IMG/VR virus record: IMGVR_UViG_3300009095_000015
Span: 10,260 to 74,259 of that record
DNA length: 64,000 nucleotides
Strand: one strand, 5' to 3'
DNA from: a virus
Lineage: Duplodnaviria; Caudoviricetes
Part shown: in pieces, positions 13,425 to 31,463 of the stretch
How the letters are laid out: each line of letters begins with the position of its first letter
Numbering within the stretch: the stretch's first letter is position 1
Position numbers and translations under genes: made by a program
The notes under the pieces: generated by a model
Database searches by the model: none
What the model saw: the letters and a program-made list of their open reading frames with translations, nothing else
Told to the model about the DNA's origin: nothing

Positions 13425-13460
13425 AAAAAAGGCCGTTTGCTTTTACACAGACGGCCTTTT
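13425..13460 (-). terminator. rho-independent terminator ending the head operon
   Basis: AAAAGGCCGT...ACGGCCTTTTTT. Confidence 0.8.
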
Positions 13461-13462
13461 CA

Positions 13463-13963
13463 TTACAGCTGGATGCGTATGCGGCCCGGCTTTACTTGCG
13501 AACTCGCCACGGCAACTAATTCGTTGTCGTCAAGATCATCGTAAACATCCGCAGCAACGGCTTCGATGTGCGGGTCGAGAATAATCTCGTCACCTTCGGT
13601 AAGGTAAGTGCGTTGCTGAGAAACAGCACTCGCAACAGCAACAACTTTCGCAAACGCTACTTGGTCGTTGCCGTGAAGCGACGGCGCAATGGTGTTTTCC
13701 GACGCAGGCACGCCCACGTGAGAATTAAGGCCCGGAGTAGAAATCGGGTGCTTATCCGTAACGTACGAATTAAACCCGTCAATTCCCATTCCGTCACAGC
13801 CTACGCTGGCAACTTCGCCGGAGCTACGTTGCGGCAGCATACCGTAAACGCAATCTTCAAAGTCTTGGCACTTTCGCGCACTGCGCAAAATTTCAAGCGC
13901 GAGTTCATCGCGATTTTCCTTAATTGCAAGTGCAGCGCATGCCAGCAAAGTTTTTACGTCCAT
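13463..13963 (-). CDS. putative head protein (166 aa) with AVAS motifs
   Basis: Follows MCP; strong SD (AGGAG); VAVAS occurs twice. Confidence 0.65.
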   Translation of the reverse strand: MDVKTLLACAALAIKENRDELALEILRSARKCQDFEDCVYGMLPQRSSGEVASVGCDGMGIDGFNSYVTDKHPISTPGLNSHVGVPASENTIAPSLHGNDQVAFAKVVAVASAVSQQRTYLTEGDEIILDPHIEAVAADVYDDLDDNELVAVASSQVKPGRIRIQL

Positions 13964-14026
13964 AACAACTCCTAGTTTTCCGAACGGTAACAGGGGCGCT
14001 CCTATTACCGTTGTTTTTCGGAGTTA

Positions 14027-15115
14027 TTAGGCGAGACGCACGCCCTTGGCGACCGAACGGCTGTTGGCCAGAACGAACGAGAAAGGTTCGCTCAGCAGCC
14101 AACCCTTGCTGGTGCTGCCTTCGTGGTTGGCGTTAGTCGGCTCGGAACGGATACCGCCACGGGTCGAGTAAGCAGCATGGTTTTGCGGATCGGCAACCAC
14201 GTAAATTTCGCCCGGATTCAGAACCTTCTGGTTCGGCTGACGGAAAGCATCAGTCAGCAGAGTCATACCGACCAGAGTACCGAGTTGGCCATTCAGGGCC
14301 AGATCGTACTTAGTGATCGGATCGAGGAAGGTTGCAAAATCGTTGGAACCGATAATGTCGGCCCAATAATCGTTGGAAATCAGGCAAGTGGTAGCCGGCA
14401 GGTTCCAGCCAGCAACAGCTTGACGCAGACGGCCGAGGTTTTTGGTGGTCAGTTCGCCGGCGATATATTCCAGCTTGTTGGTAACACCAACAGTCATATC
14501 GGCGGACTTTTTCCACAGGCGGTCTTCAGCAACCATGATTGCATTCAGGCCGTCGTTGTAAGCGTGTTCCAGCAGGTCGCCGTTGACTTGTTCCAGATCG
14601 AGAGTCGAAACGCGCACGTTGGCGATAATTTCGAATTCTTCCGGGTGGAAAACGCGCTGGCGAATTTGCTGATAACCGACACCGGTAGCGCTGGTGGCAA
14701 TTACGGCCATGGCGTCGTGAGACGGCATCGGAACGCGTTGCACTTCACCTTGACGCAGAGTGTTACCAACAGCGATCTTACGCAGGAAACCATCACGGTC
14801 GGCCTGATCGTAAATTTGCTGGGCAATGTTTGCACCCAGCGCAGTCCACTTGGACGGGTCTTGCAGGGCTTCGGCCAGCAGTTCACGACGGTCAGAAGCA
14901 GTGGCAACCATCTTTTGCGGCTGTTGCACGACTTGGCCGGAAGCAACGGCGGTCATCAGGTTTGCAATCTGTCTTACCAGATCGTTTTTGTCGTAGGCGT
15001 TGAATTCGCCAGTAGCGGACGACAGGGCCAGTTCGCGGCTTTTGCCGAAACGCAGGTCTTCGAGCGGTGCGCCATTGCTCAGCATCATACGGGCGCCCTT
15101 GACTTGATTGTGCAT
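14027..15115 (-). CDS. major capsid protein precursor
   Basis: 362 aa with strongly biased codons; HK97-like features (G.LG.L.GM.L.TD, VADP..H, GW...E.FS.VLAN.RSV.KG); follows the scaffold and decoration genes. Confidence 0.9.
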   Translation of the reverse strand: MHNQVKGARMMLSNGAPLEDLRFGKSRELALSSATGEFNAYDKNDLVRQIANLMTAVASGQVVQQPQKMVATASDRRELLAEALQDPSKWTALGANIAQQIYDQADRDGFLRKIAVGNTLRQGEVQRVPMPSHDAMAVIATSATGVGYQQIRQRVFHPEEFEIIANVRVSTLDLEQVNGDLLEHAYNDGLNAIMVAEDRLWKKSADMTVGVTNKLEYIAGELTTKNLGRLRQAVAGWNLPATTCLISNDYWADIIGSNDFATFLDPITKYDLALNGQLGTLVGMTLLTDAFRQPNQKVLNPGEIYVVADPQNHAAYSTRGGIRSEPTNANHEGSTSKGWLLSEPFSFVLANSRSVAKGVRLA

Positions 15116-15187
15116 TGTTTAATCTCCAAATCTTTCAGAAAGCGACGTGCGCTTTAAACTAACACGCCGCTATTTTCGTGTGGGTTG

Positions 15188-15925
15188 TTAGGCGTTGTTG
15201 ATCTTGATCGGCAGGGCGCCGTAAGCACCGGAGTCAGCCATCGGAACGCCGGTAACAATGATGTTCTTCAGCAGCGGACCAGTGCCGCCAACAGTCAGAC
15301 GACCATCAACGCCGAGGTTCGGGTGAATAACGTTAGACCAATCAACAGAGGCGTCGTAATAAGTGGTAGCCAGTTCACCACGAATTACACAACCGATAAT
15401 TTCTTGCACGCTGGACGGCAGGCCACCAATCGGAGTATCACCGATAATGGTACGTGCTTCGCTCAGGGTGGGTTCGTAAATGGCCTGTACGTAAACTTCC
15501 GCACCTTGGTCGCCCGGAACAGCAGGCAGTTCGCCAGCGGCCGGAGTGCCGGTGAAGAAGAACAGCTTGCTGCCAACGAGTTGAACTTCGCCATTTGCTT
15601 CAGGAACGTCGGCGACGACAGTAGCAGCTTCACCGTTCAGGCGAACCAAAATTTGACCGGCAACCGGGATGCGACCGAGGTCAATAACACCGGATTGCGG
15701 AACAGTGCGATCCGCAATAACCAGCGGCAGGAATTGCGGCGGTGCGTTGCGAGTCATGGAGAAGCCGGCGAAAACTTCGTCAGCGGCACCGGTAGACGGG
15801 CGGACGTAAGCAACACCATTAATCTTCTTGTAAACCAGAGCAACACCTTCCTCTTGGATGATGACGCCCGGTTCTACTTGGCGGTGATCGGTTTCAAACA
15901 GACGAGTGAACTTATGCGAAAGCAT
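15188..15925 (-). CDS. head structural/decoration protein (245 aa)
   Basis: Lies between scaffold and MCP; codon usage like MCP; strong SD. Confidence 0.65.
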   Translation of the reverse strand: MLSHKFTRLFETDHRQVEPGVIIQEEGVALVYKKINGVAYVRPSTGAADEVFAGFSMTRNAPPQFLPLVIADRTVPQSGVIDLGRIPVAGQILVRLNGEAATVVADVPEANGEVQLVGSKLFFFTGTPAAGELPAVPGDQGAEVYVQAIYEPTLSEARTIIGDTPIGGLPSSVQEIIGCVIRGELATTYYDASVDWSNVIHPNLGVDGRLTVGGTGPLLKNIIVTGVPMADSGAYGALPIKINNA

Positions 15926-15938
15926 TGTGTATTTCTCC

Positions 15939-17684
15939 TTAGCGGCGCTGGCCGAAAGTCAGCGATTGCAGGCGGGACATGAAATCGCCGCCACTTTGAT
16001 TATTGGACGCGGTTGCGACGGTTTTCTGCGAAGGCTGCTCGTCAATTTTTGCCGGGCGGCCCACAACAACAGCGGAAGCGGTTGCAACGTGAGAAGTTTG
16101 CGTAATCGCTTGCGCCAGCTGGTTTTGGACTTCAAGTTCATAACCAGTAATGTCAGTTGCTTTTGCAATCAGCATCTTGTTGTAAGCGTCGCCATGTTCG
16201 GCGAAAGCATTTGCAACGATTTGCTCTGCGCCACGCAGACCGACAGCTTCCAGAGAGGAAGCCAGAGCGGCAATAATCGGGTTTTGCAGCGCGGGGAAGA
16301 AACCACGATTAATGCCCTGTGCAGCAGAAGCCAGAGCGGCTTCGTAGCGGCTACTGAGTTCGTTAGTGTCGCGCTCGGCTTCTTCACGAATTTCAGAAGC
16401 TTTCGCTTCGACTGCGCTCTGAATTTCAGCTTGCACATAATCAGCAACCTGCACGGTGGGCTTGATTTCCTCAAAACCCATCTCTTCCAGAGCAGTAGCA
16501 ACGCCGTGTTCGGAGGCCAGTGCTTTGAAAGCGCGTGCGAAAGTGCTATCGCTGAAAATGTCTTTCTTTTTGGTAGAGGACGCGGTTGCCTTAGCAAACG
16601 GCAGACCGTCATAGAAAGCCAGCCAAGTTTGATCGCCCTTGATGCTACCGGCGAAGGCAAGTTCTACGTTTTCAGGGGACATTTTGTCACCGGCGATGGC
16701 GACAAAAGAAGCAGCCACAGAAACCATTTTCTTTTCCTTGCGGAAAACACCACCGCGCTTGTTTTCGACGCCGCTAGACGCAAGGCTCAGCGACAGTTCG
16801 TCGTCTTCATCTTCGTCGTCTTCATCAGACTCTTCGTCGGAATCATCTTCCTCGGATTCATCTTCGTCATCGTCTTCGAAATCTTCATCTTCATCGTCTT
16901 CGTCGGACTCGTCGTCATCGGAAGCAGCGGCAAAGTTGGAAGGTTCGATCAGGCCCATGGAAGTTTCCGGGCAGAACAGCGGAGAGTCGTCGCTGCAAAG
17001 AACGTGCATTACGTCACCCGCTTCAGACGCGGTAGTAAAGTAATGTGCGTCAACGGTGCCGCCGTCTTGGGCGGAAGCCAGAGCAGTTACAGCCTGCGAC
17101 TCGTAGTCTTCTTCAGATTGCGCAGCAGCAACACCACGATAAACGTCGTATTGCAGAGGCTTGTTGGAAACAACCATTACGCCGTCGCATTCAGTGGCGA
17201 ACGTCTTGACGCTGCCATTCAGAATGCCACGATAAGCGTCGGTCACGCCTTCCTGAGAAGAGGCGAATGCGAGGATTACCTCTTGTTTTTTGGTCTTCAA
17301 GTCAGTGTCTTCCAATTGTTGTAGATCGGAAGCGCATGCGGGGCATTTTGCCAACATTTGCTCATCATCGACCAGCAAATGCGAGCCGCAGCCCGAAGAA
17401 CAAATCGCATAAAACACGTCAGCTTCGTCGCCGGGTTTGGCAGAAGCAACAGCAGTATGCTTGAATTCCTCGGGCGCAGTTACCATTTCTTCGCCGTCTA
17501 CAGGATTCATCAGTTGCTGACCTTCCACTTGAGCAGTGGAAACAACAAACGAACCATCTTGACTTCGAAGAGCGTAACCTTCACCGGAAGCAACAGCGCG
17601 GTAACGCTCTTGGGCTTCTTCCAGAGAATTAGCGGCAACGACAATCCCACGGTAGCGCGAGTTTCGTTTCATAGAAAGCTCCAT
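15939..17684 (-). CDS. prohead core/scaffolding protein
   Basis: 581 aa, Ala-rich, Cys clusters (CSSGC..CPAC; C..CP), ~35-aa acidic tract, helical C-terminus, upstream of MCP. Confidence 0.7.
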   Translation of the reverse strand: MELSMKRNSRYRGIVVAANSLEEAQERYRAVASGEGYALRSQDGSFVVSTAQVEGQQLMNPVDGEEMVTAPEEFKHTAVASAKPGDEADVFYAICSSGCGSHLLVDDEQMLAKCPACASDLQQLEDTDLKTKKQEVILAFASSQEGVTDAYRGILNGSVKTFATECDGVMVVSNKPLQYDVYRGVAAAQSEEDYESQAVTALASAQDGGTVDAHYFTTASEAGDVMHVLCSDDSPLFCPETSMGLIEPSNFAAASDDDESDEDDEDEDFEDDDEDESEEDDSDEESDEDDEDEDDELSLSLASSGVENKRGGVFRKEKKMVSVAASFVAIAGDKMSPENVELAFAGSIKGDQTWLAFYDGLPFAKATASSTKKKDIFSDSTFARAFKALASEHGVATALEEMGFEEIKPTVQVADYVQAEIQSAVEAKASEIREEAERDTNELSSRYEAALASAAQGINRGFFPALQNPIIAALASSLEAVGLRGAEQIVANAFAEHGDAYNKMLIAKATDITGYELEVQNQLAQAITQTSHVATASAVVVGRPAKIDEQPSQKTVATASNNQSGGDFMSRLQSLTFGQRR

Positions 17685-17734
17685 TTATAGCTGGGGACAT
17701 TGCCCCACAACTAAAAATTACCCAAAAGCAAAAA

Positions 17735-18100
17735 TCAACGCAGCTTCATAGCCAACGACCGAATCTTTCGAACAATCGATTGGTCACTATGATGGGCGGT
17801 TTCGCCTTTGTAATACAGGGTTTCGTTATTAACTCTCGAAAACCCGTTATATTGCCAGTAATCGTATTTGTCCTCTGTGCTGAATTCGATTTCAGCAACA
17901 CCTGCGTGAGAACTCAACGTCACCTTAATAGCGTGTTTGTCTTTAGCTCCAGTTTCTTCCTGAACAACCGCCGCCTTGACGAAGCCTTTAGCAATCAAAT
18001 CAATTGCGTTGATGTGATGGCTAATATGCTTAACATCCGTATTAATAGGTTGTCGTGATTCAGGTAAAGGAGCGCCGGCCAATGCAATGTTTACCTTCAT
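17735..18100 (-). CDS. leader-bearing putative internal head protein (121 aa)
   Basis: Starts MKVNIALAG; promoter-like motif and SD upstream. Confidence 0.7.
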   Translation of the reverse strand: MKVNIALAGAPLPESRQPINTDVKHISHHINAIDLIAKGFVKAAVVQEETGAKDKHAIKVTLSSHAGVAEIEFSTEDKYDYWQYNGFSRVNNETLYYKGETAHHSDQSIVRKIRSLAMKLR

Positions 18101-18577: not shown

Positions 18578-21388
18578 CTAAGGTGCTCTGTTAGTAAGGC
18601 TTATCGTAGGCTGTGTGACCATTTCAGCCCCATCAACCTTTGCCTTACCTTTCTTTTTCTTTTTAAATACGCCCCCGACTACAAGGCGCTTTCCGGGTTT
18701 CGCTTTATCGAAGCTTATGTAAGGCAAAGCGTCCCATCTTTCCGGGCTAGTTGCCCTGCTCAGACTTATCTGGACCTTCATAGGTTGTACACCATTGTCG
18801 TAAATGCGTTTGATTTTATCTCCAACGTCTCGCAGTTGTTGTAGGTAAGTATCGTAATCGGCTGCGCTAGAAACAAGAGCGGAACGAAGACTGGCATGGC
18901 GATCTACATACGGGACAACATCTTGATGCGGAGCGTATTTGGCAACAAATTCATCATACGTAGCAGTGCAGGCTTCCACCAGACGCTTGAGAAGCTCACG
19001 ATCAAGTTCAAACTCGGCAACTAGCGGACGTAGCTTTTCGTAAAGATGTGTAGCTTGGTGCCATAATTCAGCCTTCTCTTTAGTGGTTTTTGGTTTATCC
19101 TGTTCAAGGCGCTTTAGACTCTTAGTCATGGTGGCAAGGAAGCGTTTCAGCTGTGACGCAGAGGTCAAATTCGATATGGCTTCCAGCAACATTACGGCCG
19201 TTGCGACTGATTTCTTTTGTTTTACGAAATCGATAACTTCATCAAAATTGGATAAAGTCCCGCTGACGGTCATCCAACGCTGTACGCTTTCTATGGGAAC
19301 GTACTGTAACAACTGCGGATCGAGGGACAGGTCAGCCTTCTTCTGCCCGGCACCTTGGAGCAAAGTAGGGTAGCTTAAACTACTAAGTTTAAAGTCCAGC
19401 CTGCCTTCACCGATAATCGTGTCTAAGTCTACCTTCTTAAACTTGAATCTTTCCGAAAAATCGCCCTCGCCGTAAGCTTTACTGACAAGGTTAAAGGTCT
19501 GTGCCGCACCCTCAAAAATGCCCGACAGCTCGATAGGTTCGCCTTTATACGAAAGCAGAGCGTTGACCACGGAATCGTAACCAGACAAATCTAGCGTTTC
19601 GGGTACATTGGGATGCTCAAGCGCTGCACGTAAATCAAAACGCAACGCCAGCTTAAAATCCACGCCCAAAAGAAGGGTAGGGTCTTCTTCGACTTCACGC
19701 AAACAGTCTCCCTTAACGTCGCGTGTTAGGTCTTCATCTTCAGTGATAATGTGCTCTACCGTTCTAATAAAGAAGGGACGGACGGCTTCTTTGTCCTCCC
19801 TATATACGCGACAAAGTGCACGAAAAGCGCGGCGCGTCAGGAATGGCCGCATGTTTATACCAACAGCATGGATAGAACTGGCCGGTTCTTGAAGGACGAG
19901 GCAGGCTGCGCCTTTGTTAACGGTAGGCGCTACGTTTCCGTAAAGGAACACGTAGTCTTTATTTTTAGGGAACTCGCTAACGATTCGCAGTGTTTTGTGC
20001 AGCCCGTGCATATACGCGAAGTTACCCCACAAAGCAGACCAGCGCAATGCTGACGCCATGGTATGCAGGACTGAACAAAGTGCCGGATATTCTCGGAATA
20101 GTTCTTTGTCATAAGTGAACATGGAGCCTGCTATAATTGCGGAAAAGCTGTGGCGCTTTTCTAGCCTAGAAACTCCCCGCCCGGTGTTAATGAACTTCTC
20201 TAGACGGCTGAACAGAATACGTTGGCCGAGTTCGCTAGAGTAGGACGCTTGTAGAAATGAGGCTAGATTGCTGGAGACTTCGGCCCGCTCCAGCATATCC
20301 GTTGCTTCCTTTTCCCCGTCTTTAAGCAATCCAGCAGCTCTAAATAGCTGTATAGCAATCGGGTGAGCATGCCCTTCAGGCGTAACCTCGTGGAATACTT
20401 GCATCAACTTTGGGGCAGCTCTAACTACGAGTTTCTCAAGCGCTTCGCGGGATTCGTCATCAATGAATTTCGTGCATTCGTACAATTCGTACAAAGCTTG
20501 AGTGTAGTTTCCGCTCTGTATGCAGTCCCGAACCCGGTTAACTATAGGGTTGGCAGAGTGTACTTCATCGACAGGCTTATCAGCGCTTTCAATCTCATCA
20601 GCTCTCGAATAAGAGCCGCCTAGGCCGTCATTATAAACGCCGGGCGCCAGCTGAAAATCAGTGCCCTTAACGTGAGCGTTAAACTTGCGCAAAAACGAAG
20701 CGACTGTTACACGAAATCCGTGAACGGGGTTTCCATAGACGTTTGATTCCATGCGATACAGAACGTTAGAACGATCTTCATCCGAAATGAAAGGTTTCAA
20801 CAGAACGCGGCACAGCGGATGCTCGATATTATCGTCAGTTTCGCGGATCGCGTAAGCAACCAGCGTACCGTAAGCAACGTCGCTCAATAAGGCGTGACTG
20901 CCAGAGCCGCCTGTGGTGCCGGCATACTTATCAGCCAGCCTCATGCAGCTTTGTTGGTCCCAATCCCTACCAGTGGACATTCCGATAATATCGTACGGGT
21001 GGCAGGAAATAACAATCCTGACGTTACCGGCGTTGCTATTCTGAAGCTGAGGGTCGTTATCGAATGCCATCTTCGCATGCACGTCATCAGCAATTATTTT
21101 ACCGATGTTGTACACGTTCTTCTGTTCTTTGTCAGAAACTTTCACACATTTCTTAGCGCGGTAATCGGTTACGACAAATCCCTTTTCGTGCAGAGCGTGC
21201 TCGACGGCAGGAGGAACCGTAAAGCGTTTTGAGCTGTTGTTAACATCTAAGTAAAGGCGGTAGCCGAGCTTGCCTTTACCTTTCGGCATAAAACTCTGTA
21301 GGCGTTTTACAATGGGCGAATTTCTGTCCCAATTTTTCCTATAGCGCAGTGCCGTACGCAGTCCGACGGCTGACAAAGACAGGTACAT
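18578..21388 (-). CDS. large paralog-family protein A (936 aa), conserved N-domain plus unique C-region
   Basis: MYLSLSA leader; ISCHPYDIIGMSTGRDWD..SCMRL domain shared with three neighbours. Confidence 0.85.
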   Translation of the reverse strand: MYLSLSAVGLRTALRYRKNWDRNSPIVKRLQSFMPKGKGKLGYRLYLDVNNSSKRFTVPPAVEHALHEKGFVVTDYRAKKCVKVSDKEQKNVYNIGKIIADDVHAKMAFDNDPQLQNSNAGNVRIVISCHPYDIIGMSTGRDWDQQSCMRLADKYAGTTGGSGSHALLSDVAYGTLVAYAIRETDDNIEHPLCRVLLKPFISDEDRSNVLYRMESNVYGNPVHGFRVTVASFLRKFNAHVKGTDFQLAPGVYNDGLGGSYSRADEIESADKPVDEVHSANPIVNRVRDCIQSGNYTQALYELYECTKFIDDESREALEKLVVRAAPKLMQVFHEVTPEGHAHPIAIQLFRAAGLLKDGEKEATDMLERAEVSSNLASFLQASYSSELGQRILFSRLEKFINTGRGVSRLEKRHSFSAIIAGSMFTYDKELFREYPALCSVLHTMASALRWSALWGNFAYMHGLHKTLRIVSEFPKNKDYVFLYGNVAPTVNKGAACLVLQEPASSIHAVGINMRPFLTRRAFRALCRVYREDKEAVRPFFIRTVEHIITEDEDLTRDVKGDCLREVEEDPTLLLGVDFKLALRFDLRAALEHPNVPETLDLSGYDSVVNALLSYKGEPIELSGIFEGAAQTFNLVSKAYGEGDFSERFKFKKVDLDTIIGEGRLDFKLSSLSYPTLLQGAGQKKADLSLDPQLLQYVPIESVQRWMTVSGTLSNFDEVIDFVKQKKSVATAVMLLEAISNLTSASQLKRFLATMTKSLKRLEQDKPKTTKEKAELWHQATHLYEKLRPLVAEFELDRELLKRLVEACTATYDEFVAKYAPHQDVVPYVDRHASLRSALVSSAADYDTYLQQLRDVGDKIKRIYDNGVQPMKVQISLSRATSPERWDALPYISFDKAKPGKRLVVGGVFKKKKKGKAKVDGAEMVTQPTISLTNRAP

Positions 21389-21390
21389 GC

Positions 21391-23202
21391 TTATCTCCGA
21401 TTCAGCAGTTTGGTTAAACGTTCATCCGGCTGCTTAGCGTTCAATTCCGTCAACATTTTGAAAAGCTGCGGGCGGCGTCCGAACCACGATACGCCAAGAT
21501 CGTAGTTCTGACTATGGTGGAAATGCGCCCAGCGTATTACGGCTTTGTTGATATCATCTACATTCATGTCGAGTAAAACACGAATAGTTTTGTCGCTCAG
21601 GCTATGCCCGGATTGAGCCACGTCTTCAGGGGAAACGCGGGCGTAATCTGGAGCAAGTTCCAGCAGCGTAGCGGAAGGCGAAACGTGAGAAGCTACGAAT
21701 TTACGCACAGTGTTCTGCCAGTTCAAGGTTTCCATCAAGTCCAACAGTTCGGAATCTAAACGGAACGGCCCCGTCCTTTTGGCAAACTCGCGCACGTTCT
21801 TTATGTCAACGTTCGACGAAATGTCTTCGTTTTTCAGCGAAGCTATCAAGTTGCAAATAAAGCCAACCCAACGTTTTATCAGTTGTGCTCCTTCATATTT
21901 ACTGTCTTGAAGTTCACGAGTCCACTTAAACGTACCGCGCACGAATCGCAATACAACCATGTGCAGGTCCATGCGCTGCGCGACAGTCAGTTTTTCAATG
22001 TTCGCTATCCAACGAGAATCGTATTCGCCAGCACCATTCAGGATGAATTCGACGCTCACTGGAGCATCACTACCTAAATAGTCGTATGCCATGGCTGCTG
22101 CGTCTTTAAGAATCCGGCTTTTTGTCAAAAGCATTTTGGCACGGCGTGACGCACCGACCAACCAAGGGACAACTTCGTCCGAGTAAAAGTCGCCATACGC
22201 GTCAACGTATTCATCGTAGGCTTTTGCAACCTGACTGACAGGCAGTACAGTTGTAGCACCGGCCAAAACATCGAACAAAGAGTAGCCATCCACTGCGGAT
22301 TCGATCAACAGCGGCAACCAGCGTTTGTCGTCGCGCAGCCAAGTGCGTACGCCGCCAGTTTTGTGCAGGTAATATTTGATGAATTGCTTCTTTTCGCTAT
22401 CCGAGAGGGAATCGAATCGCGCCACCATTAGAACACGAGATTCATCGCCGCCATCCATGTGCACTTCGTCGGACAATTTGTACATGCCAGACGCAGCCTG
22501 CTTGTTAACGCGTTTTAGCCACTGATCGACTGTGCGCTGGAAACCGGGAATTGGCTGGCCGTATACGTTCGGGTCTGCCTTGAAATAAACGTGTTTGTCA
22601 TCACCTTCTTTTTTGAAGGGTTTGATGAGAAGGCGTGCGTGTGGTTTGTTGATGTTGGTATCGCTAGGACTGATCACGTAGGCAACAAGCGTGCCTTCAG
22701 CTACAGTACCGGCCATATATTCAGAGCGCATTCCGGCATCATTTTTGTTATCCGGTGTTGCTAACCGTAAACAAGATGTAAAATCCCAGCGGCGCCCTGT
22801 ACTCATACCGACAACATCATAAGGGTGGGCACTAATTACGACCGTATATTCGCCCTTGTGTGCGCTGCGCTGCGGATCGTGGGAGAATAGTTTAAGCGCG
22901 TTTTCGTCTTTCAACAATTTGCCGATGCGAATCTGGCGCTTTCTGTCTTTCGTTACAGCGATACCGTTGACGTAGTTTTCGATTTCATACCCGGCGGACT
23001 TTACAGCAGAGCTGACCTCAGCTGGAATGACAATGCGATCATTCTTGTTACGCTTAATGGGCAGATATAGTCTGTACCCACGGCTTCCCTTCGGGAGAAA
23101 TTTGCGGATTACCTGCACGCCCACGCCCTTTTTATCCCAGTCTTTTACGAACGGGCGGGCCACGCTCAGGGGTACGGCAGCTAGCGCGATATTTACTTTC
23201 AT
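21391..23202 (-). CDS. large paralog-family protein B (603 aa)
   Basis: MKVNIALAA leader; ISAHPYDVVGMSTGRRWD..SCLRL. Confidence 0.85.
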   Translation of the reverse strand: MKVNIALAAVPLSVARPFVKDWDKKGVGVQVIRKFLPKGSRGYRLYLPIKRNKNDRIVIPAEVSSAVKSAGYEIENYVNGIAVTKDRKRQIRIGKLLKDENALKLFSHDPQRSAHKGEYTVVISAHPYDVVGMSTGRRWDFTSCLRLATPDNKNDAGMRSEYMAGTVAEGTLVAYVISPSDTNINKPHARLLIKPFKKEGDDKHVYFKADPNVYGQPIPGFQRTVDQWLKRVNKQAASGMYKLSDEVHMDGGDESRVLMVARFDSLSDSEKKQFIKYYLHKTGGVRTWLRDDKRWLPLLIESAVDGYSLFDVLAGATTVLPVSQVAKAYDEYVDAYGDFYSDEVVPWLVGASRRAKMLLTKSRILKDAAAMAYDYLGSDAPVSVEFILNGAGEYDSRWIANIEKLTVAQRMDLHMVVLRFVRGTFKWTRELQDSKYEGAQLIKRWVGFICNLIASLKNEDISSNVDIKNVREFAKRTGPFRLDSELLDLMETLNWQNTVRKFVASHVSPSATLLELAPDYARVSPEDVAQSGHSLSDKTIRVLLDMNVDDINKAVIRWAHFHHSQNYDLGVSWFGRRPQLFKMLTELNAKQPDERLTKLLNRR

Positions 23203-23256
23203 GTAGGAAGTTCCTAGTTACGTGCCTGCTTTCACAAGCACGTAATACCATCAGGT

Positions 23257-25929
23257 TTAAGGGGCTGGCTTTTCTTCATAGATGATTTTATCAAGCGTAC
23301 GTTTGAACATACGCATTGTGCGATTAACATCATCCATCACACCATGAGCCAAGTCGCATGCTTCCGAAACCAGAATGTCAAACAAATTGAGATTATTCTC
23401 GATTTCTTCGCGAGGGTAGCCACTAAAGAACTCTGCCCACGCGTCGGCAAACTCGGCATCGTCTCTTTTTGCCCTAGGAAAAGTGAAAACGAAATCTTCA
23501 ATTCTCTTTGCGTACTCGGGGAGAAAATCAAGGATGTGTTGAGCCTCTTCAGGTGTGCGATCACGAAGCCATGCAAATTCTCCACCCGCGTTAGTATAGT
23601 CAAGGTGTGGTACACCGTACGAGTTAAGAACAGCATCGAAATCGGAAGCCGCATTTAACATATAACGCAGAGAATTCAGCAGGGATCGCAAAGGCAAACC
23701 CCGTTCAAATATATCCAGATACGATGCGCCTAGATCGTTGCCAATGAAAATGTAGGCGGGCACGGACGAAGCTGAACTGACAGTCAACAACTGAGGGTGG
23801 CGTTTCAGGTCAATGTACAAGCCTCGCGGGATGCCTACCTTAGCCATAACGTCAACGATCTTTTCGTTAAACTCGCCAATAGGCGGCGGGTTTTGATTGG
23901 TTACGTGGAGACACGTATAAAGAGTATCGAAAATTCGCTTTTGATGCTCGTTACGTGGCTTCACATTTGGATGCAGGTTTGCGGTCTGGCCGTATTGCGA
24001 GCGTATGTCGGTAAAAATGCGTACCAGTTCCTCTTCGGATTCCGCATCGTATGCTTCGTACCACACATAGGGAAACAAGTCAGAGTTACCAGCGACGTTG
24101 CGGTTCCACACGTTGACAACGCCCAAATTGTGGCCGTGTTCTTTAAGATGCGCGAAAAGCTCGCGCAGATTCTCTACGTGAAGCTGGTATGTATTTTCGA
24201 TAAACTGACTGATCTTGCGAGAGAGTGCAGTTTGAATCGCCTTGTTATTGATCTTGTAAAGACGCTTGCGGCTACGGCGATTCAACATGGCACGAACACT
24301 AACATCAAATGTCATTCCCTCTAGGACAGCATAAGCGCGCTCAAAGTCGCCAGCTTCAGCACAACGTAATGCGTAACAAAGGCCGATAAATTCCGAGCCT
24401 TTATCTCTGTTGATGGATTGGTGTTCGTTAAATGCTTCAAATTCTGCTTCGGTCAACTCAGTTGAAACCGCCGGGAAGCTAGCCAATACGGCTTCGGCTC
24501 TGTTCAGGTGTGCAGAGGCCCCGAACATCGCAGATTCACGAAGCAATTCCGCACACAGGTAGACAAATTTATGCAGCTCTGGATCGCGGATAACAACGTC
24601 GCGCGGAACGTCGCGAGTTCCTGTAACGCAGCTGTAAGCAACATCCATATATGCGTTTTTGCCTATGCTGTGGCTGAGAACTTGCTTCACTTCATCGCGT
24701 GCTGCTTTTGGGGACAGCTGCCCGTACCGAAACAAGCGCGTTCGCACATTATAGTCGTCGGCGAAGATAATCTTGTCCATTCCTGCATAAATGGCATCGG
24801 CTTCTGCGTTAACAATCTTTTTGAAAGCCTTGTTAGCCATCATCGATAAGAAACCATCTATGACGGCAGCGTTAGTGTCCATTATGTAGGCCACGTAAGA
24901 CTCGATAGTATCGCGGTGCGCTCTGGCAAAAATATCGGCCGCCTGCTTGGCGTAACGTACAGGCACGCTTGCTTTATCGATCATATACGCAACCATAGCT
25001 ACAGGCATGTGCGGACCGCTATCGTTCGCACGGCTGTGTCGAATAGCGTATTCAGCATACGAAGGTAAGAGACGCGGGTTTTCCCTAAGAATGTTTTGAG
25101 CATCATTGGCTCTCCAATCAATAGAGCCTTGAGAATCTGAACGATGCAGGTCTGTACCGCCCACGCCATCATTGTAGAGATTCGGATTTAGCTTGTAGAT
25201 GCCTTCTGGAATACCTGCGTTTAGTTTACGCAGAAACTTGTTGATAGCTTCGGCCATTCCGGGGACAGGGTTGCCGTAAATGCGAGTCTCTCGTCTGTAT
25301 TTAATGGCATCGCCACCATCTTGCAGGAAAGGCTTCAGCAGGCAGCGCCCGAGAGGATTTTTAATATCCATGTCATCGGAGCGTACCGCGTACGCAACCA
25401 ACGTACCTTCGGCAACGTCACGCTCAAGAAAGTGGGTGTTTATACCCTCTATGTGATTATCGCGAAAATCCTTCAGACGCATGCAACTCGTATCATCCCA
25501 ATCCCGCCCGGTAGACATTCCGATGATATCGTACGGGTGGCAGGAAACCACCAAAGTAAATTCGGAGGTTTTCGAGTTTTGCAGTTGCGGGTCGTTGTCG
25601 AAGGCAGCTTTCGCAACAGGATCGTGAGCGATAACTTTGCCGATATTGAATTCGTTTTTCTGATCTTTGTCCTTGATCTTTACGCACTTCTTAGCGCGAT
25701 AATCAGTGATCTTGAAGCCGGCTTTACGCACGGCCTGCCGAACAGAGACGGGAGGCACAACGTGCGGTGTAGTGTCGCTGCCGATTGGGATATACAAGCG
25801 ATACCCGGCAGAGCTGCGAGGCATGAATTTACGCAGCAGCTGAACGGTGGGTCCGTTCTTGTTCCAATTCCTGCGATATTTCAAGGCCGACCGGAGAGAT
25901 ACAGCAGCGAGCGCTACATTGATTTTCAT
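23257..25929 (-). CDS. large paralog-family protein C (890 aa)
   Basis: MKINVALAA leader; VSCHPYDIIGMSTGRDWD..SCMRL. Confidence 0.85.
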   Translation of the reverse strand: MKINVALAAVSLRSALKYRRNWNKNGPTVQLLRKFMPRSSAGYRLYIPIGSDTTPHVVPPVSVRQAVRKAGFKITDYRAKKCVKIKDKDQKNEFNIGKVIAHDPVAKAAFDNDPQLQNSKTSEFTLVVSCHPYDIIGMSTGRDWDDTSCMRLKDFRDNHIEGINTHFLERDVAEGTLVAYAVRSDDMDIKNPLGRCLLKPFLQDGGDAIKYRRETRIYGNPVPGMAEAINKFLRKLNAGIPEGIYKLNPNLYNDGVGGTDLHRSDSQGSIDWRANDAQNILRENPRLLPSYAEYAIRHSRANDSGPHMPVAMVAYMIDKASVPVRYAKQAADIFARAHRDTIESYVAYIMDTNAAVIDGFLSMMANKAFKKIVNAEADAIYAGMDKIIFADDYNVRTRLFRYGQLSPKAARDEVKQVLSHSIGKNAYMDVAYSCVTGTRDVPRDVVIRDPELHKFVYLCAELLRESAMFGASAHLNRAEAVLASFPAVSTELTEAEFEAFNEHQSINRDKGSEFIGLCYALRCAEAGDFERAYAVLEGMTFDVSVRAMLNRRSRKRLYKINNKAIQTALSRKISQFIENTYQLHVENLRELFAHLKEHGHNLGVVNVWNRNVAGNSDLFPYVWYEAYDAESEEELVRIFTDIRSQYGQTANLHPNVKPRNEHQKRIFDTLYTCLHVTNQNPPPIGEFNEKIVDVMAKVGIPRGLYIDLKRHPQLLTVSSASSVPAYIFIGNDLGASYLDIFERGLPLRSLLNSLRYMLNAASDFDAVLNSYGVPHLDYTNAGGEFAWLRDRTPEEAQHILDFLPEYAKRIEDFVFTFPRAKRDDAEFADAWAEFFSGYPREEIENNLNLFDILVSEACDLAHGVMDDVNRTMRMFKRTLDKIIYEEKPAP

Positions 25930-25931
25930 TT

Positions 25932-27164
25932 CTATTCCTTACCGTCCGTTTTGCGGATGATTTCGCGAACCTTAAATGCCAATTCTTCGACATTCAGAGA
26001 ATGCTTGCGCATGTAGTCTTGAATGCGCGCGGCCATCTGTTTTTCTTTTCCACGGGCGTGGCTGGCGTTATGTAGCAATGAAGACATTTGGTGTTTCATG
26101 TCAGTCGCGTACATTTTGTAGCCGAAACTGTTGCGAACGTAGTCGTACTCTTCGCGGATCGGAGCCTTACCTGAATACAGAGTATCGACAATAAACTTGG
26201 CGTCGGAATACTTCCCGCGCAAGTGCATGCGTCCCCGGAAACTCTGGCTGCTTAACTCGTCTTCGGTCAGCTTACGGGTCAACACGCTAACCGGCTTCCC
26301 GCCGTAATTCAAGGACGACAAAGGCATGGCTTTGCGCGAATCGAGCATGCGGTATGCTTTGGTGTCCGCGTAAAGATGGACTTTAATACGCAACTTAACC
26401 AACTTGATGATTAAAGCGCGCATGCGGCGACCATCACGTTCTCCGTCAAAATGGGAAACGTCGATATGGACAGCACGTATCATCTTTAAAACGTTTTTCA
26501 CCGAAGGCTTCTTGTAATAGTATCGGTCTTCCTGCTCGTTGTGCTTGTGGATAGCGTCCGCGCCCCAGTAATTCACGGCCTCTCGCGGCATAATAGCGTG
26601 TAGTTTTGAAGCATCAAATTCGATGACTGCGTTATAGTGAGCGTGAGGTTGGAATTTGCCACGGCGCACGCTAAGGAAATAATCGTGCTTTGAAAATGGC
26701 TGCTCCGCTTCTTTGCCAGCCACCTGAGACAATACCAGAGAATTACTCTCGACGATTCCGAACAGGCCGGCTAAGCTAGTGCCGTGGAAGGCTTTGGCGT
26801 TGGAAGCTAGGGCAAACAGTTTAGAAATAGCATCGCACTTCACGGAAGACGCAACGGCCAGTTTCCGATTACGTTCAATCTCGGCGCTGAGTTCTTCGGC
26901 GTCGGTAATAAACGTAGAATCCACGTCCTTCACAGTTATAGCATCGTAGAAGTATGGTGCTGAATCAGCTTCCATTACTTCCATTGCCAGATCGTAAGTC
27001 ACTTTGGATTGCGTAAAACGAACACCGGTAACACGCGCACGGTGTCCATAATTGATCAGATCGGACACATGCTTGAGGTAAACGTGGTTCGGATGGAAGT
27101 AAACAATGGAACCGATTGCGAAGCGCCCTTCGGCAGGAGCCTCTAGAGAAACAGGGTAAAGCAT
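25932..27164 (-). CDS. two-domain protein: N-terminal beta-rich domain plus ART-like domain (410 aa)
   Basis: FHGTS, FLSVRR, IEFDASKL, VNYW and EQEDR; paralog of 27237..28118. Confidence 0.65.
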   Translation of the reverse strand: MLYPVSLEAPAEGRFAIGSIVYFHPNHVYLKHVSDLINYGHRARVTGVRFTQSKVTYDLAMEVMEADSAPYFYDAITVKDVDSTFITDAEELSAEIERNRKLAVASSVKCDAISKLFALASNAKAFHGTSLAGLFGIVESNSLVLSQVAGKEAEQPFSKHDYFLSVRRGKFQPHAHYNAVIEFDASKLHAIMPREAVNYWGADAIHKHNEQEDRYYYKKPSVKNVLKMIRAVHIDVSHFDGERDGRRMRALIIKLVKLRIKVHLYADTKAYRMLDSRKAMPLSSLNYGGKPVSVLTRKLTEDELSSQSFRGRMHLRGKYSDAKFIVDTLYSGKAPIREEYDYVRNSFGYKMYATDMKHQMSSLLHNASHARGKEKQMAARIQDYMRKHSLNVEELAFKVREIIRKTDGKE

Positions 27165-27185
27165 GCTGGAAACTCCACGAAATGG

Positions 27186-27214
27186 AAAAGGTGCGTGAAA
27201 TTAATCGACGCACC
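27186..27214 (-). terminator. rho-independent terminator
   Basis: GGTGCGT...ACGCACC followed by TTTT. Confidence 0.6.
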
Positions 27215-27236
27215 GCCTTGTGTTTAAATTACCGGA

Positions 27237-28118
27237 TTATTTCCACTTGGCACTGAGAAATTCAGATAACTGTTCGACGCTCATGCGATTCTTGCGCAGA
27301 TACAAGTTGATCTTGTTGGCGTACTTCGCGGCCAATTCAGTTTTCGCGCTATTGATCATATTACGTAGCGTTGTAGCAGAAACTCCGTAGCGCAGGTGAT
27401 CAACCATTTCTCTGCGGGCGGCCTTCTGTTTGGACGATTTTGCCCCTTCCAGCAGGGTGGCATAAACAGATGGCCTGCCGTTTTCGATAACAGGATGCTT
27501 TTTAAAATCCGTACGAATAGCCTTCCACAACGCCTCCAAGGCATAGGCCGGGGATTCGTAACCCGGAAGAGCCGATCCGAGTTTCCGAGTCTCCTTTGAA
27601 AGCTGTAACGGAATAGCTTTGCGTTTATCGAGAGTGACCATCACACGGGGATTCTCGTACTGAAAACACGGAATACCGTTACGTTTGCAAACCGCAACAA
27701 TGTCCAAAGTATTGTAACCAGACCAATTATCGCTCCCTGCGAAGTGCACCTCTTTCAGATAGCGCAAAAGAGGAATAAGGGGCTTGTTGGCGAATAGCCG
27801 ATCCTCAGCCTCATCGTCGGTGTTATAAGAACTGTCATGCCAGTAGTCAATAGACTCGATTTTGTAATTATGCCCGAGCTTGGAGCCGTCGAGTACAAAC
27901 ACGACTTTGTTGCCGTGTGTATTGTTACGGATATAATCGCTGAGTTTTGTTCGAGCAAGACTCAGGAAGAATGCACCTGCTCCAAGGCTAGCTTCGAATT
28001 TACTGGCTTCCATGGGGGCCAAGCGTAGACGATCCCGCTGTAGTGCCGTCACTGCGTGTTTCATGTCGATCAAGTGATACAAGATCGGTGTAGCCGCCAG
28101 AGCGATATTTACTTTCAT
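27237..28118 (-). CDS. leader-bearing ART-like protein (293 aa)
   Basis: MKVNIALAA leader; LYHL, FLSLAR, FVLDGSKL, IDYW and EAEDR. Confidence 0.65.
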   Translation of the reverse strand: MKVNIALAATPILYHLIDMKHAVTALQRDRLRLAPMEASKFEASLGAGAFFLSLARTKLSDYIRNNTHGNKVVFVLDGSKLGHNYKIESIDYWHDSSYNTDDEAEDRLFANKPLIPLLRYLKEVHFAGSDNWSGYNTLDIVAVCKRNGIPCFQYENPRVMVTLDKRKAIPLQLSKETRKLGSALPGYESPAYALEALWKAIRTDFKKHPVIENGRPSVYATLLEGAKSSKQKAARREMVDHLRYGVSATTLRNMINSAKTELAAKYANKINLYLRKNRMSVEQLSEFLSAKWK

Positions 28119-30703
28119 GTGTCAGCCTTTTTCTTACGGCGCTGCGTGGACAGGCGCCGATTGATAGATTTACGTGAATCCGCAAATGACGCCTCGACTT
28201 CTTTCAGTCGACTCTTCAAAGCGTCATACTCGTCGTCCCTGAATGTGGAACCGCTAGCAAATTTAGCAACAAATTCCTGCCGGCTCTTACCGACAAGGGC
28301 GGCCACTTTGCCAAGTGTCTCTTCGTAAAGGCGCAGATTATAAGACATATCCTTTATGTAAGTCACATAGTCTTCATCGTGCTCGTTTTCTTCTGATTCT
28401 TTTCGCCACTCCTTCAGTCCGAGGGGCTTCTCGGCGCGGAAAGAGCACTCATCTAGAATGTCCTCCAGAACGTCGGCGGCAGCGCTCGCGTAATAAGTGG
28501 TAAGATGTTCCAGCACGGCATCGATTTGAGTGCCAGTTAACGTGGCTTGATCGAAAGTTTTGGTCTCTATAATATCGCCGACAAGCCCGAGTTTGGTAAC
28601 ATCGACGGGCTTCGTCATACCTTCTGGAATCTTACGGAACTCCAGCATAAAGTGACGCATGTTGTAGAAATGCTGTGCAATAAAGTCACGCACATCTGGA
28701 AGGTCGAAATTGAAGTGTTCAACAATCTGCTTCTCATTCCCGTAGCATTTTGCCAACAAATACGCGTATTGCACAACGTAGGTTGATGCGCGCGTAACCG
28801 GTGTTAGCTTCTCCCCTCTGTAGTTGAAGATGGCGCTGGCCGTACGAAAACCGTTAGTCGTGTTGGTGGTTGCTTCGCTAACCATAAGAACAGGGAGCGA
28901 AAAATTAGCAAGGCGCGTTATCGAACCCGGCGATACAAGATCAGCCCACCTATGTTGGTTTTCTATAGCCCACTTAGCAAGCGCATCCCTAACATAGCGA
29001 TCCATGTGAAAGGCCGCTGTATACGATAGCAGGCGGTACATCAGACTGTACATTGTAACGTCGTAAAACTCCGTTGCGGCAGGACTTTCTACCCTTTCAA
29101 GTGCTTTCAGGATTCGTCGCGTTGCAACAACATTAACGTCGGATGGGTCTAATGATCCGGGAAGTTCAATTCGGGCGGCGGGGTTGTCCATAATGTAGAG
29201 CAAAAATGCCACGCCTTTTCCGTACGTTTGCGTCAGCACGTGTACAATCAGTGCGGTATCATCACACTTGGGCTGGTCTACGGCCTCAAGTATAGCGTAG
29301 ATTGATTTCTGATATTTCTGCGCGCTCAGCAATACTTCATACCGCAGGGCGCTGCAAATGCTGTGCAGAACGGAACCCAACAAAGGAAACTCTAGCAACT
29401 CTTCCTTTGTGGGTGCTCTGTATACACCTTTTAAAAATCTATTAAGACGGACAACTGTTTTGAAAGGCAAGTCCTCGCTAGGGCTGGCTGCAATTTCACG
29501 CTCCACAGTTTCGAGTAGGAACTTGTACCCTTCCGGGTCTCTATTTACGAAATAGACTGCCTCAACATCCCCTATGAAAATGCTAGCTTCCTTCAGAGGT
29601 ATGGTGTCACCGTAGTGTTCTTTCAGTGCTTGCATGTCCAGTTGATATTTATCTTCTACAAGTCCTTGCAGAAAAGGAGGGATAGCCGTGACCATACTAT
29701 TCTGCAATGCACGCGCGGCTGCTGCATTGTTTTGGAAGAATTCAATTACTTTCGGCTGGAGCGTGTCAGGTAGGTTATCGCGTTGTTCGATAATTGCGCT
29801 GACGAGTTTTCTTACGCGATCAGGTTCGTCATGGTTTACATACTTCTCCAGAGTGCCTTCAGGATCGTCGGCGAATTCCTCTCCTACAGGAACCAAGTCG
29901 CCCACGCCTGAATAGTGTACTTCTGTCCCGACCCCATCATCGTACAAACCTTCAGCCAGCCTATAGGCGCCACCTTTAGCTTTAGCGTTAAGTTCGCGCA
30001 AAAACTTACTCAGGACCATCCCGAAGCCGGGGACATTATTCCCGTAAATGGAGGTCTCCCGGCGGAAAAGAATGTCGCCGTTTTCCCCATGGAACGGTTT
30101 AAGCAAGCATCGACACAAAGGGCTCTGCACGTTAGAGTCGGTTTCACGTACAGCGTAAGCAACCATAGTGCCGGCGCTAACATCGCGACTGACGTGGGCA
30201 GCGTTGCTTCCGCGATCCCCTTTGTTGGAAATAGCATCATCAAGGCGCATGCAGCTCTGACGGTCCCAGTCTCGCCCCGTAGACATTCCAATAATGTCGT
30301 AAGGGTGGCAAGAAATAACGACGTTGATCTTGCTGTCTTTGCTGTTTTGCAACTGAGGGTCGTTGTCGAAGGCCGCTTTTGCGATTGGGTTTTTCGCAAC
30401 AACCTTGCCGATGTTGAATTCGTTTTTCTGCTCCTTATCAGAAGCTTTCACGCATTTCTTGGCGAGATAGTCTGTAATAACGAAGCCTTGCTTACGCAGC
30501 TCTGCGCTTACCGCCGGTGGGACTGAGAAGTGCTTACGCGCAGCAGTTTCGATTGGAATATAAAGCCGGTATCCGGGTTTACTGCCGTTCCCTTTAGGCA
30601 TAAAGCTTTGGAGCATTTTAACGGACGGGTTATTTCGATCCCAGCTCTTCCGGTATTTAAGTGCAGTACGCAGCCCGACGGCTGCGATGGCTTTAATTCT
30701 CAC
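28115..30703 (-). CDS. large paralog-family protein D (862 aa)
   Basis: MRIKAIAA leader (GTG start, SD AAGGAG); ISCHPYDIIGMSTGRDWD..SCMRL. Confidence 0.85.
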   Translation of the reverse strand: MRIKAIAAVGLRTALKYRKSWDRNNPSVKMLQSFMPKGNGSKPGYRLYIPIETAARKHFSVPPAVSAELRKQGFVITDYLAKKCVKASDKEQKNEFNIGKVVAKNPIAKAAFDNDPQLQNSKDSKINVVISCHPYDIIGMSTGRDWDRQSCMRLDDAISNKGDRGSNAAHVSRDVSAGTMVAYAVRETDSNVQSPLCRCLLKPFHGENGDILFRRETSIYGNNVPGFGMVLSKFLRELNAKAKGGAYRLAEGLYDDGVGTEVHYSGVGDLVPVGEEFADDPEGTLEKYVNHDEPDRVRKLVSAIIEQRDNLPDTLQPKVIEFFQNNAAAARALQNSMVTAIPPFLQGLVEDKYQLDMQALKEHYGDTIPLKEASIFIGDVEAVYFVNRDPEGYKFLLETVEREIAASPSEDLPFKTVVRLNRFLKGVYRAPTKEELLEFPLLGSVLHSICSALRYEVLLSAQKYQKSIYAILEAVDQPKCDDTALIVHVLTQTYGKGVAFLLYIMDNPAARIELPGSLDPSDVNVVATRRILKALERVESPAATEFYDVTMYSLMYRLLSYTAAFHMDRYVRDALAKWAIENQHRWADLVSPGSITRLANFSLPVLMVSEATTNTTNGFRTASAIFNYRGEKLTPVTRASTYVVQYAYLLAKCYGNEKQIVEHFNFDLPDVRDFIAQHFYNMRHFMLEFRKIPEGMTKPVDVTKLGLVGDIIETKTFDQATLTGTQIDAVLEHLTTYYASAAADVLEDILDECSFRAEKPLGLKEWRKESEENEHDEDYVTYIKDMSYNLRLYEETLGKVAALVGKSRQEFVAKFASGSTFRDDEYDALKSRLKEVEASFADSRKSINRRLSTQRRKKKADT

Positions 30704-30754
30704 GTGATGCTCCTTGTTGTGTGCTATACACGTAAATTAACTGGAACGGAAAAC

Positions 30755-30794: not shown

Positions 30795-31463
30795 TCAATC
30801 TGTAATTGATGCGGTGCGTGGCTTGAATGTGCCTTTGTTGCCAACAGCACTCTTTATTTGAGTGGGCGAAAACACGACGTAATTACGAGAGCCGCCACGC
30901 CCCACTATAACCCCGTCGTAGCCTGTCGCACTCTTGAACACATTCGCGAAACTGTACTGCTTCGGTGTGCCTGAGTACAAATCGTTGAAAATACCGAAAC
31001 TTGCGTCGATAAGACTAACACCGACATAAAGGTCTATATACTCGGCGACCGAGCGCTCATATCCCTGATATTCAGTATCGAAATTGTCTTTTATCCAAGT
31101 GCGTAGGGCTTTTTGCCCAACTGCATGAACTAGCTTGCTGACTTGGCTGCGTGTCGCATCTGGTTGTTTTTCGTAGTAAATAGGCTTCTGAATCTTCAGA
31201 TAAACAGGAACGGTATTGCCGCCGTGTCCAGCAGCATAATGGTGCGCCCAATCCGTGTTGTCAGTGAAGTAAAAGCCGACGCCGTTTTCGTCGTTACCGT
31301 GGCCCAAATGCTTCGTATCAAATGCACTGAAGATGGCCGTGGTCCCGTGGAATACACGCAGCGGTTTGCCTTCTTTGTCGACAACTTTCGATTTGCCGAA
31401 CCATTTCTTGAAGGCTTCCGTTTGCTGCTGTGCATGCGTAGCCAGCGCGATGTTTACTTTCAT
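30795..31463 (-). CDS. ADP-ribosyltransferase-like protein (ART-PolyVal family) with leader
   Basis: WFGKSKVVD..GKPL.VFHGT...F..F, GFYFT....A..YA, PVYL.I.KP, GYDGVI, YVVFSPTQIKSA.GN.GTF. Confidence 0.85.
   Translation of the reverse strand: MKVNIALATHAQQQTEAFKKWFGKSKVVDKEGKPLRVFHGTTAIFSAFDTKHLGHGNDENGVGFYFTDNTDWAHHYAAGHGGNTVPVYLKIQKPIYYEKQPDATRSQVSKLVHAVGQKALRTWIKDNFDTEYQGYERSVAEYIDLYVGVSLIDASFGIFNDLYSGTPKQYSFANVFKSATGYDGVIVGRGGSRNYVVFSPTQIKSAVGNKGTFKPRTASITD

Follow-up and report, generated by a model that had tools for sequence, protein, structure and literature searches.

In bacteriophage T4, a capsid targeting sequence is found on the internal proteins IPI-III, and the ADP-ribosyltransferase Alt is packaged as well; in the giant phages phiKZ and SPN3US, prohead cleavage takes place after S/A/G-x-E. 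Large tandem paralogs that are probably processed by a protease and carried in the head are represented by the inner-body proteins of phiKZ and the ejection proteins of SPN3US (PMC5694885, PMC7411985), and polyvalent proteins have been proposed to enter the capsid and to be injected together with the DNA (Iyer et al. 2017, PMC5512222). Here, four large paralogous proteins of an uncultured Lu11-like giant (jumbo) phage, whose closest cultured relatives are the Pseudomonas phages Lu11 and HRDY3, were compared with these systems. Their genes lie in a stretch of 64,000 nucleotides (nt) corresponding to positions 10,260 to 74,259 of IMG/VR record IMGVR_UViG_3300009095_000015 (henceforth called the window, to which all coordinates refer). 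Head-carried proteins that are tagged like the T4 internal proteins are known; new is the family defined by the conserved N-terminal domain (N-domain) of the four paralogs, which is unnamed and has neither a solved structure nor a proposed function.

Our preferred reading, held with about even confidence, is that the paralogs are capsid-loaded and probably injected effectors whose conserved N-domain acts in the host, the activity itself being predicted. They resemble the phiKZ and SPN3US proteins in being large tandem jumbo-phage paralogs that are probably protease-processed and head-carried, and differ from them in that no sequence relationship was found, the presumed protease motif is another one, and the N-domain family spans many unrelated huge-phage lineages.

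Four large paralogs had been described in the original prediction, which was made by a model from the letters of the window, and four minus-strand open reading frames (ORFs) of 936, 603, 890, and 862 amino acids (aa) encode them; a search of the whole contig of 74 kilobases returned exactly four copies of the N-domain gene. The 936-aa paralog occupies 18578-21388, with the N-domain at about 20594-21388, a degenerate N-terminal leader peptide (MYLSLSA) at 21368-21388, and the C-terminal region (C-region) at 18578-20593. It is followed by the 603-aa paralog (the “short” type; 21391-23202, N-domain 22408-23202, leader MKVNIALA 23179-23202), the 890-aa paralog (23257-25929, N-domain 25135-25929, leader MKINVALA 25906-25929), and the 862-aa paralog of the Lu11 gp214 type (28115-30703, N-domain about 29900-30703), which has a GTG start and a degenerate leader (RIKAIAA). 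GGAG is located 5 nt before the ATG of the 936 gene, this ATG being 2 nt past the stop codon of the 603 gene, and a strong AAGGAG precedes the GTG of the 862 gene by 6 nt.

The N-domain comprises about 255-270 aa, and its pairwise identity among the four paralogs is 36-59% (blastp E-values of 5e-49 to 5e-98). All motifs that had been listed for it were found, i.e., GYRLY, F..DPQ, [IV]S[CA]HPYD..GMSTGR.WD..SC[ML]RL, GT[LM]VAY, R.L[LI]KPF, and YG..[VI][PH]G. In an alignment of 55 diverse members, twelve columns are invariant (R44, G97, S129, H131, P132, D134, R142, W144, C149, Y180, R195, and Y218; numbering of the 890-aa protein), and the proposed Cys/His/Asp-bearing character of the domain is borne out by H131, D134, and C149 among them. 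The invariant Cys is that of “(S)CM”, i.e., of the second “SC” (S148-C149). The Cys position in “SCH” varies, the consensus being S-R-H with Arg in most members and S-A-H in the 603-aa protein. Residues 1-110 of the domain form an accessory part and residues ~110-260 a mobile core, on which the invariant set S-x-H-P-x-D, R-x-W, (S)C, Y, R, and Y-G is located; the domain is basic with an isoelectric point (pI) of 9.2-9.7. It had been left without a named family in the original prediction, and so it stands: the four proteins and selected relatives gave no meaningful match in Pfam, NCBIfam, and PADLOC, and PDB searches by sequence returned nothing relevant with either a single-sequence or a profile query. 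In PHROGs, the N-domain had no match, the sole one for the paralogs being weak (E-value 0.007) and situated in the C-terminal part of the 936-aa protein. Acetyltransf_* profiles of the GNAT clan had 0 matches in the four proteins and 109 family members.

Judged by homology searches, the N-domain defines a very large and so far unnamed family of huge-phage proteins. A phmmer search with residues 1-270 of the 890-aa protein against 1.84 billion cluster representatives (clusters at 50% identity) retrieved 2048 clusters at an E-value of ≤1e-3 and 1319 at ≤1e-10, and a profile search added 797 further proteins, almost all of them metagenomic. The domain is N-terminal in nearly all of the best 150 phmmer matches, in proteins of 109-1844 aa (mostly 279-1000 aa), and the contigs encoding members are up to several hundred kilobases (kb) long and have phage gene content. 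Prokaryote genomes, scanned by motif across 185,579 species with one genome each, yielded 2 loci only, both in one metagenome-assembled genome (MAG) of the Candidate Phyla Radiation (CPR); the motif pattern was strict, and the near-absence from cellular genomes is therefore only indicative. Both loci belong to Candidatus Shapirobacteria MAG JBAZML01 (contigs of 95 and 49 kb), and a named protein of a Dojkabacteria MAG (P0259) is also a family member. These CPR sequences may stem from phages of CPR bacteria, or from huge phages whose contigs were binned together with CPR genomes. In UniRef, the 918-aa homolog of HRDY3 (P0065; hypothetical in GenBank) is named “Portal protein”, and its counterpart in ctshb19 (P0041) is named “Apolipoprotein”; the former name is probably an automatic mis-annotation, as nothing supports a portal identity.

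A structural model of the N-domain, which had been suggested as a check, was obtained with AlphaFold2 for residues 1-270 of the 890-aa protein from the 55-sequence alignment and was confident (predicted local distance difference test (pLDDT) 91, predicted template modelling score 0.83); Foldseek against the PDB returned no match at an E-value of ≤1e-3. In the model, residues 121-257 are arranged in the order β1-α1-α2-β2-β3-β4-α3-β5, which fits β1 to β5 of the GNAT fold, and in two independent structural aligner runs all of the top 50 matches were GNAT-fold proteins, the fold match to enzymes being weak. In GNAT proteins, motif A in the β4-α3 loop binds the pyrophosphate of CoA, and the core continues with α4-β6. 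The conserved Y-G loop of the modelled N-domain sits at the position of motif A. Since the order of secondary structure fits and the Y-G loop takes this position, the predicted topology is termed GNAT-like, and assignment of the domain as GNAT is withheld. The likeness to yeast HAT1 (1bob), NatD (4u9w), AAC(3), and the C-domain of malonyl-CoA decarboxylase is thus one of strand and helix order, whereas a sequence match, helix α4, and motif A are missing, and the invariant H/D/C/R/W set has no canonical GNAT counterpart. Two other leads were rejected. A PcfJ-like lead (weak BFVD Foldseek rows; ESM Atlas score 0.86) failed in hidden Markov model and hhalign tests: the PF14284 (PcfJ) profile found nothing in the contig, Lu11, or HRDY3 at an E-value of ≤10, and hhalign of the family profile against pCF10 PcfJ gave a probability of 0.1%. 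An EcoRI-methylase lead (ESM score 0.90) shared few features and found no corroboration.

The C-regions had been described as diverging completely into unrelated helical parts. This does not hold for three of them, as the tails of the 890-, 862-, and 936-aa proteins are collinear homologs, and only the C-region of the 603-aa protein has no detectable relative. Between the 936- and the 862-aa protein, the blastp alignment covers 558 columns at 40% identity and reaches approximately residue 530. When alignments of only the C-regions of ortholog groups were compared with hhalign (reversed-sequence controls at 0.2-0.3%), the 890-type and the 862-type matched over 534 collinear columns with a probability of 98% and an E-value of 1.8e-13, and the 936 C-region alone matched the 862-type profile, from which shared sequences had been removed, with 96.8% and 2.8e-10. 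The 603 C-region was not significant against the others (probability 0.5-2%); the 603-aa protein could be aligned to models of Lu11 gp214 and gp215 with Foldseek over 650-700 columns at a TM-score of 0.35-0.39 and a root-mean-square deviation of 17-20 Å. The helical nature of the C-regions was confirmed for the 603-aa protein only, the full-length AlphaFold model of which (pLDDT 90.8) is all-α after residue 265. Neither internal repeats (self-hhalign) nor matches to repeat models were found in the C-regions of the window, and a search of the ESM Atlas with the 890 C-region gave no usable match. The C-regions of distant members consist of DUF4116, HEAT, LRV, or WG (WG_beta_rep) repeats, DUF4116 being by far the commonest; thus, the family architecture is a conserved head, i.e., the basic α/β N-domain of about 260 aa, followed by a variable, fast-evolving, all-helical, and solenoid-like C-region.

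Orthologs of the paralogs were found in Lu11 (gp213, 627 aa; gp214, 887 aa; gp215, 899 aa), HRDY3 (599 and 918 aa), and a ctshb19-like phage of 307 kb (642, 888, and 882 aa). In a maximum-likelihood tree, the N-domains fall into a “short” and a “long” clade with support of 100/99. The former contains the 603-aa protein, Lu11 gp213, and the 599- and 642-aa proteins of HRDY3 and the ctshb19-like phage; the latter is split with moderate support into 890/gp215/ctshb19-like 882 and 862/gp214/HRDY3 918/ctshb19-like 888. The 936-aa protein is sister to the 862-aa protein (91/88) on a long branch, and so represents a duplication specific to this phage. Similarity groups of the C-regions coincide with the groups of the N-domain tree, and N- and C-terminal parts therefore travelled together. 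Between orthologs, identity is 56-75% in the N-domain versus 20-37% in the C-region, i.e., C-regions evolve two to three times faster even there. An old duplication within the Lu11 group gave rise to the short (603) and the long type, the latter then separated into the 890 and the 862 type, and a further duplication of the 862 type in this phage yielded the 936-aa protein. The history that these comparisons point to is one of ancient duplication plus one recent event (862/936) with fast-evolving tails, and not of cassette exchange.

Virion data from two cultured phages are available for the family, both reported without comment on it (PMC8504454, PMC6102473). ORF132 of RsoM2USA (76.64 kDa), a member by sequence search (P0286), was identified by liquid chromatography-tandem mass spectrometry in one of about 10 abundant bands of purified virions separated by SDS-polyacrylamide gel electrophoresis (PMC8504454). 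The second member by sequence search, gp394 of Atu_ph07 (55.1 kDa; 1455 nt, L003 5878-7332), was detected in virions by electrospray ionization tandem mass spectrometry with 18 unique peptides and 41% coverage (PMC6102473, Table S5). A literature search for a proteome of Dickeya phage JA29 found none.

A connection to polyvalent proteins is provided by P0140, a metagenomic protein encoded by a single ORF of 1844 aa (code 11), in which an ART-PolyVal domain precedes three core copies (residues 110-258), each with the invariant residues kept. The neighbouring gene encodes a classical polyvalent protein with ART-PolyVal, GNAT, and ddrB-ParB domains. The core copies of P0140 carry inserts of 60-150 aa in the α1-α2 loop, and its locus, on a contig of 75 kb, holds two giant genes (2619-8153 and 8696-14153), the second of which encodes more than 1800 aa and includes a P-loop domain too. 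The family shares with the polyvalent proteins of Iyer et al. 2017 (PMC5512222) this association of its core with ART-PolyVal, a solo ART-PolyVal (PF18760) gene as upstream neighbour of the paralogs in the window, the late/structural context of the genes, and the occurrence of members in virions. It departs from them in that the N-domain is not among the polyvalent-protein domains in Pfam and, in the paralogs, heads stand-alone proteins with a long helical tail instead of being one bead of many; term searches of PMC5512222 and of a 2021 jumbo-phage survey yielded no mention of the N-domain.

The leader had been attributed to all four paralogs. In its exact form (MK[VI]N[IV]ALAA), it is present on the 603- and 890-aa proteins, and what remains on the 862- and 936-aa proteins is the degenerate version given above. 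A MKVNIALA-type leader is also found on proteins of 121, 222 (ART-PolyVal), and 293 aa that are otherwise unrelated. Each phage has its own version (MKVNIALA here, MKIQLAVA in Lu11, MEMxLALA in HRDY3; also in Dickeya phage JA29), and the pattern M-polar-h-x-h-[AS]-h-[AS] is kept across phages although codons and residues vary. In the AlphaFold model of the 603-aa protein, the leader is disordered. Sites of the type A-x-A-[AS] number 14 in a 581-aa scaffold-like protein encoded nearby, versus 2.5 expected, and 2 are present within the first 75 aa of the head protein. As with T4 capsid targeting, a short N-terminal peptide is common to unrelated proteins encoded near head genes, it ends in a motif that crowds the scaffold, and an ADP-ribosyltransferase is among the tagged proteins. 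Unlike in T4, the presumed cleavage site is A-x-A|[AS] and not L/I-x-E, the tag sequence is a different one, cleavage and targeting are putative, and distant members without a tag are nevertheless found in virions. In the gp206-gp219 region of Lu11, at least 9 consecutive genes begin with MKIQLA[VL]A, HRDY3 uses ME[ML]xLALA, and the tag changes in concert per phage; the tagged Lu11 genes include the ART-like gp206, gp208, gp211, and gp212 as well as the small GNAT-like gp210 (...KRGNGSARKAMVEFL). The tagged start MKVNIALAAVPLS (23164-23202) aligns without gaps with untagged starts of distant members, e.g., MKLQQLLEA (P0127 and later), which leads by the family consensus (EAxPLS) into the same P-L-S. 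Based on this gap-free alignment, the leader may be modelled on, or overlap, the ancestral N-terminus of the family.

Capsid loading followed by delivery is the best reading because of the virion presence, the polyvalent context, the shared leader, and the adjacent head genes. The paralogs would be made late, together with the head genes, and would enter the prohead by means of the short leader MKVNIALA, whose terminal A-x-A site resembles those crowding the scaffold; the prohead protease would then probably remove the leader. They would then be carried in the virion and most likely be released into the cell with the DNA, where the conserved N-domain would act on a target picked by the variable helical region. 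For the paralogs, we infer location in the head, leader cleavage, and injection. The N-domain itself may be an enzyme whose topology is GNAT-like, or a module that binds a ligand or nucleic acid. It is possible, and proposed here only tentatively, that it constitutes a new huge-phage enzyme family, derived from GNAT or with its own fold, with a candidate His/Asp/Cys site, which is delivered by the capsid and aimed at a different host target by each solenoid; that it is catalytic at all is a guess. Such a retargeted injected enzyme would explain why two to four diverged copies per phage exist and why the tails evolve fast, with, e.g., defence or transcription as targets.

Several observations weigh against capsid-delivered effectors. 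The two members found in virions are distant (34-37% identity), have no leader, and do not stem from a Lu11-group phage, and the genes of RsoM2USA and Atu_ph07 sit among small hypothetical genes and not in a head module. Mass spectrometry of virions is silent on head location and ejection, and an abundant virion band would equally suit a structural role. No cofactor or substrate can be named for the N-domain; helix α4 of the GNAT core is absent from its model, and GNAT motif A (Q/R-x-x-G-x-G/A) is not kept, the loop reading YGNPVPG[MF] in the window and YGTVTNEF in P0140 with only Y218-G219 invariant.

Part of this evidence suits a structural virion component, in which the N-domain would anchor the protein or bind DNA (in the head or at the base of hairs or whiskers) and the helical region would serve as a spacer or scaffold, without any catalysis or function in the host. 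ORF132 among the roughly 10 abundant virion bands of RsoM2USA, the 18 peptides of Atu_ph07 gp394, the basic pI of 9.2-9.7, and the weak fold match to enzymes all agree with it, and several phages of these groups have been described as hairy or whiskered (PMC6102473). As leaderless members still occur in virions, packaging could be determined by the N-domain itself. However, twelve residues, most of them polar or aromatic, that stay invariant at 30-40% identity are to be expected in an active or ligand site more than in an anchor, the core occurs thrice inside an ART-containing polyvalent protein, and the leader is common to ART enzymes, which are not structural; we therefore rate a purely structural role as rather unlikely. 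That the proteins instead stay in the cytoplasm as late or host-takeover proteins, with the mass spectrometric matches being carry-over and the leader acting at the 5′ end of the mRNA in translation or regulation, appears improbable. The leader is preserved as a peptide pattern despite differing codons and residues and ends in the motif enriched in the scaffold and at the N-terminus of the head protein, and 41% coverage, 18 peptides, and a band visible by Coomassie staining oppose trace contamination, even though the leader is conserved in the DNA too (a 28-nt repeat including the start codon) and, of the many proteins listed in the virion proteomes of jumbo phages (131 in Atu_ph07, PMC6102473), some may be contaminants.

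The original prediction had favoured a polymorphic architecture, i.e., a constant N-domain recombined with unrelated, swappable C-terminal effector cassettes. Identity indeed falls sharply past about residue 265, the repeat type differs across the wider family (DUF4116, HEAT, LRV, WG_beta_rep), and the order of the paralogs differs among the window, Lu11, and the ctshb19-like phage. Within the Lu11 group, recombination of cassettes is nevertheless largely refuted and, in our view, very improbable: the C-regions of all but the 603-aa protein are homologous and collinear, the N-domain clades match the C-region groups, and comparison across the related phages revealed orthologs whose C-regions are equally diverged without swapping. 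The DNA tracts that had been called near-identical are 68-72% identical over 216-453 nt with longest exact matches of 13-22 nt, i.e., none exceeds 22 nt, which is best read as ordinary conservation of the motif-coding region and not as a trace of recent recombination. Small immunity-like genes downstream of the paralogs were absent from the ORF list.

With respect to the surroundings of the capsid-delivery candidates, the paralog cluster is co-oriented with late structural genes. Directly upstream of the 862 gene, an ART-PolyVal ADP-ribosyltransferase of 222 aa (PF18760, E-value 3.9e-30) with the leader MKVNIALA is encoded on the minus strand at 30795-31463. Between the 862 and 890 genes, two interleaved minus-strand genes at 25932-28118 encode paralogs of another family, a leader-tagged protein of 293 aa (27237-28118) and one of 410 aa (25932-27164), with 24% identity over 305 aa (blastp E-value 7e-11). 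An ART-like fold is hinted at by motifs such as FHGTS/LYH, [YF]FLS..R, and E.EDR. The 410-aa protein is an apparent fusion: its N-terminal 115 aa are similar to Lu11 gp209, and the part beginning at about residue 117 can be aligned to the start of the tagged Lu11 gp206 (MKIQLALA...FHGTS); at the position of the tag, the 410-aa protein reads ...KLFALAS, an internal A-x-A-S site. Directly downstream of the paralogs, a minus-strand block of head genes at 14027-18100 comprises, based on PHROG matches, the tagged 121-aa gene, the 581-aa acidic scaffold-like protein, a 245-aa virion protein, and the major head protein, and is followed by sheath, tube, and baseplate genes. The 581-aa protein (15939-17684) carries the PHROG label “ATPase” (phrog_20988), yet has a long Asp/Glu tract, and its sequence suggests a head scaffold rich in protease sites and not an ATPase. 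The motif KTAATTTA has four minus-strand sites (30733-30740 (TTAATTTA), 27225-27232, 11376-11383, and 45825-45832), which is no excess over the 4.04 expected by chance. Every site is on the coding strand, and three of the four are intergenic, upstream of the 862, 410, and sheath genes; by strand and placement, the motif is a candidate for a late promoter element. The site that precedes the 862 gene comes after a GC stem that is followed by a T-run.

A family of more than 2000 clusters that is distributed over huge phages of many hosts and is found in virions, yet has no name, is among the larger blind spots in jumbo-phage proteomes. If its members are only structural, they would still be an unrecognised conserved virion component worth adding to Pfam and PHROGs. 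If the N-domain is an injected enzyme, it would place a new activity beside the few proteins that are co-delivered with DNA (T4 Alt and IPI, P1 Dar, and polyvalent proteins), and the sets of paralogs would show, as a natural experiment, the way in which fast-evolving helical domains retarget a single catalytic head.

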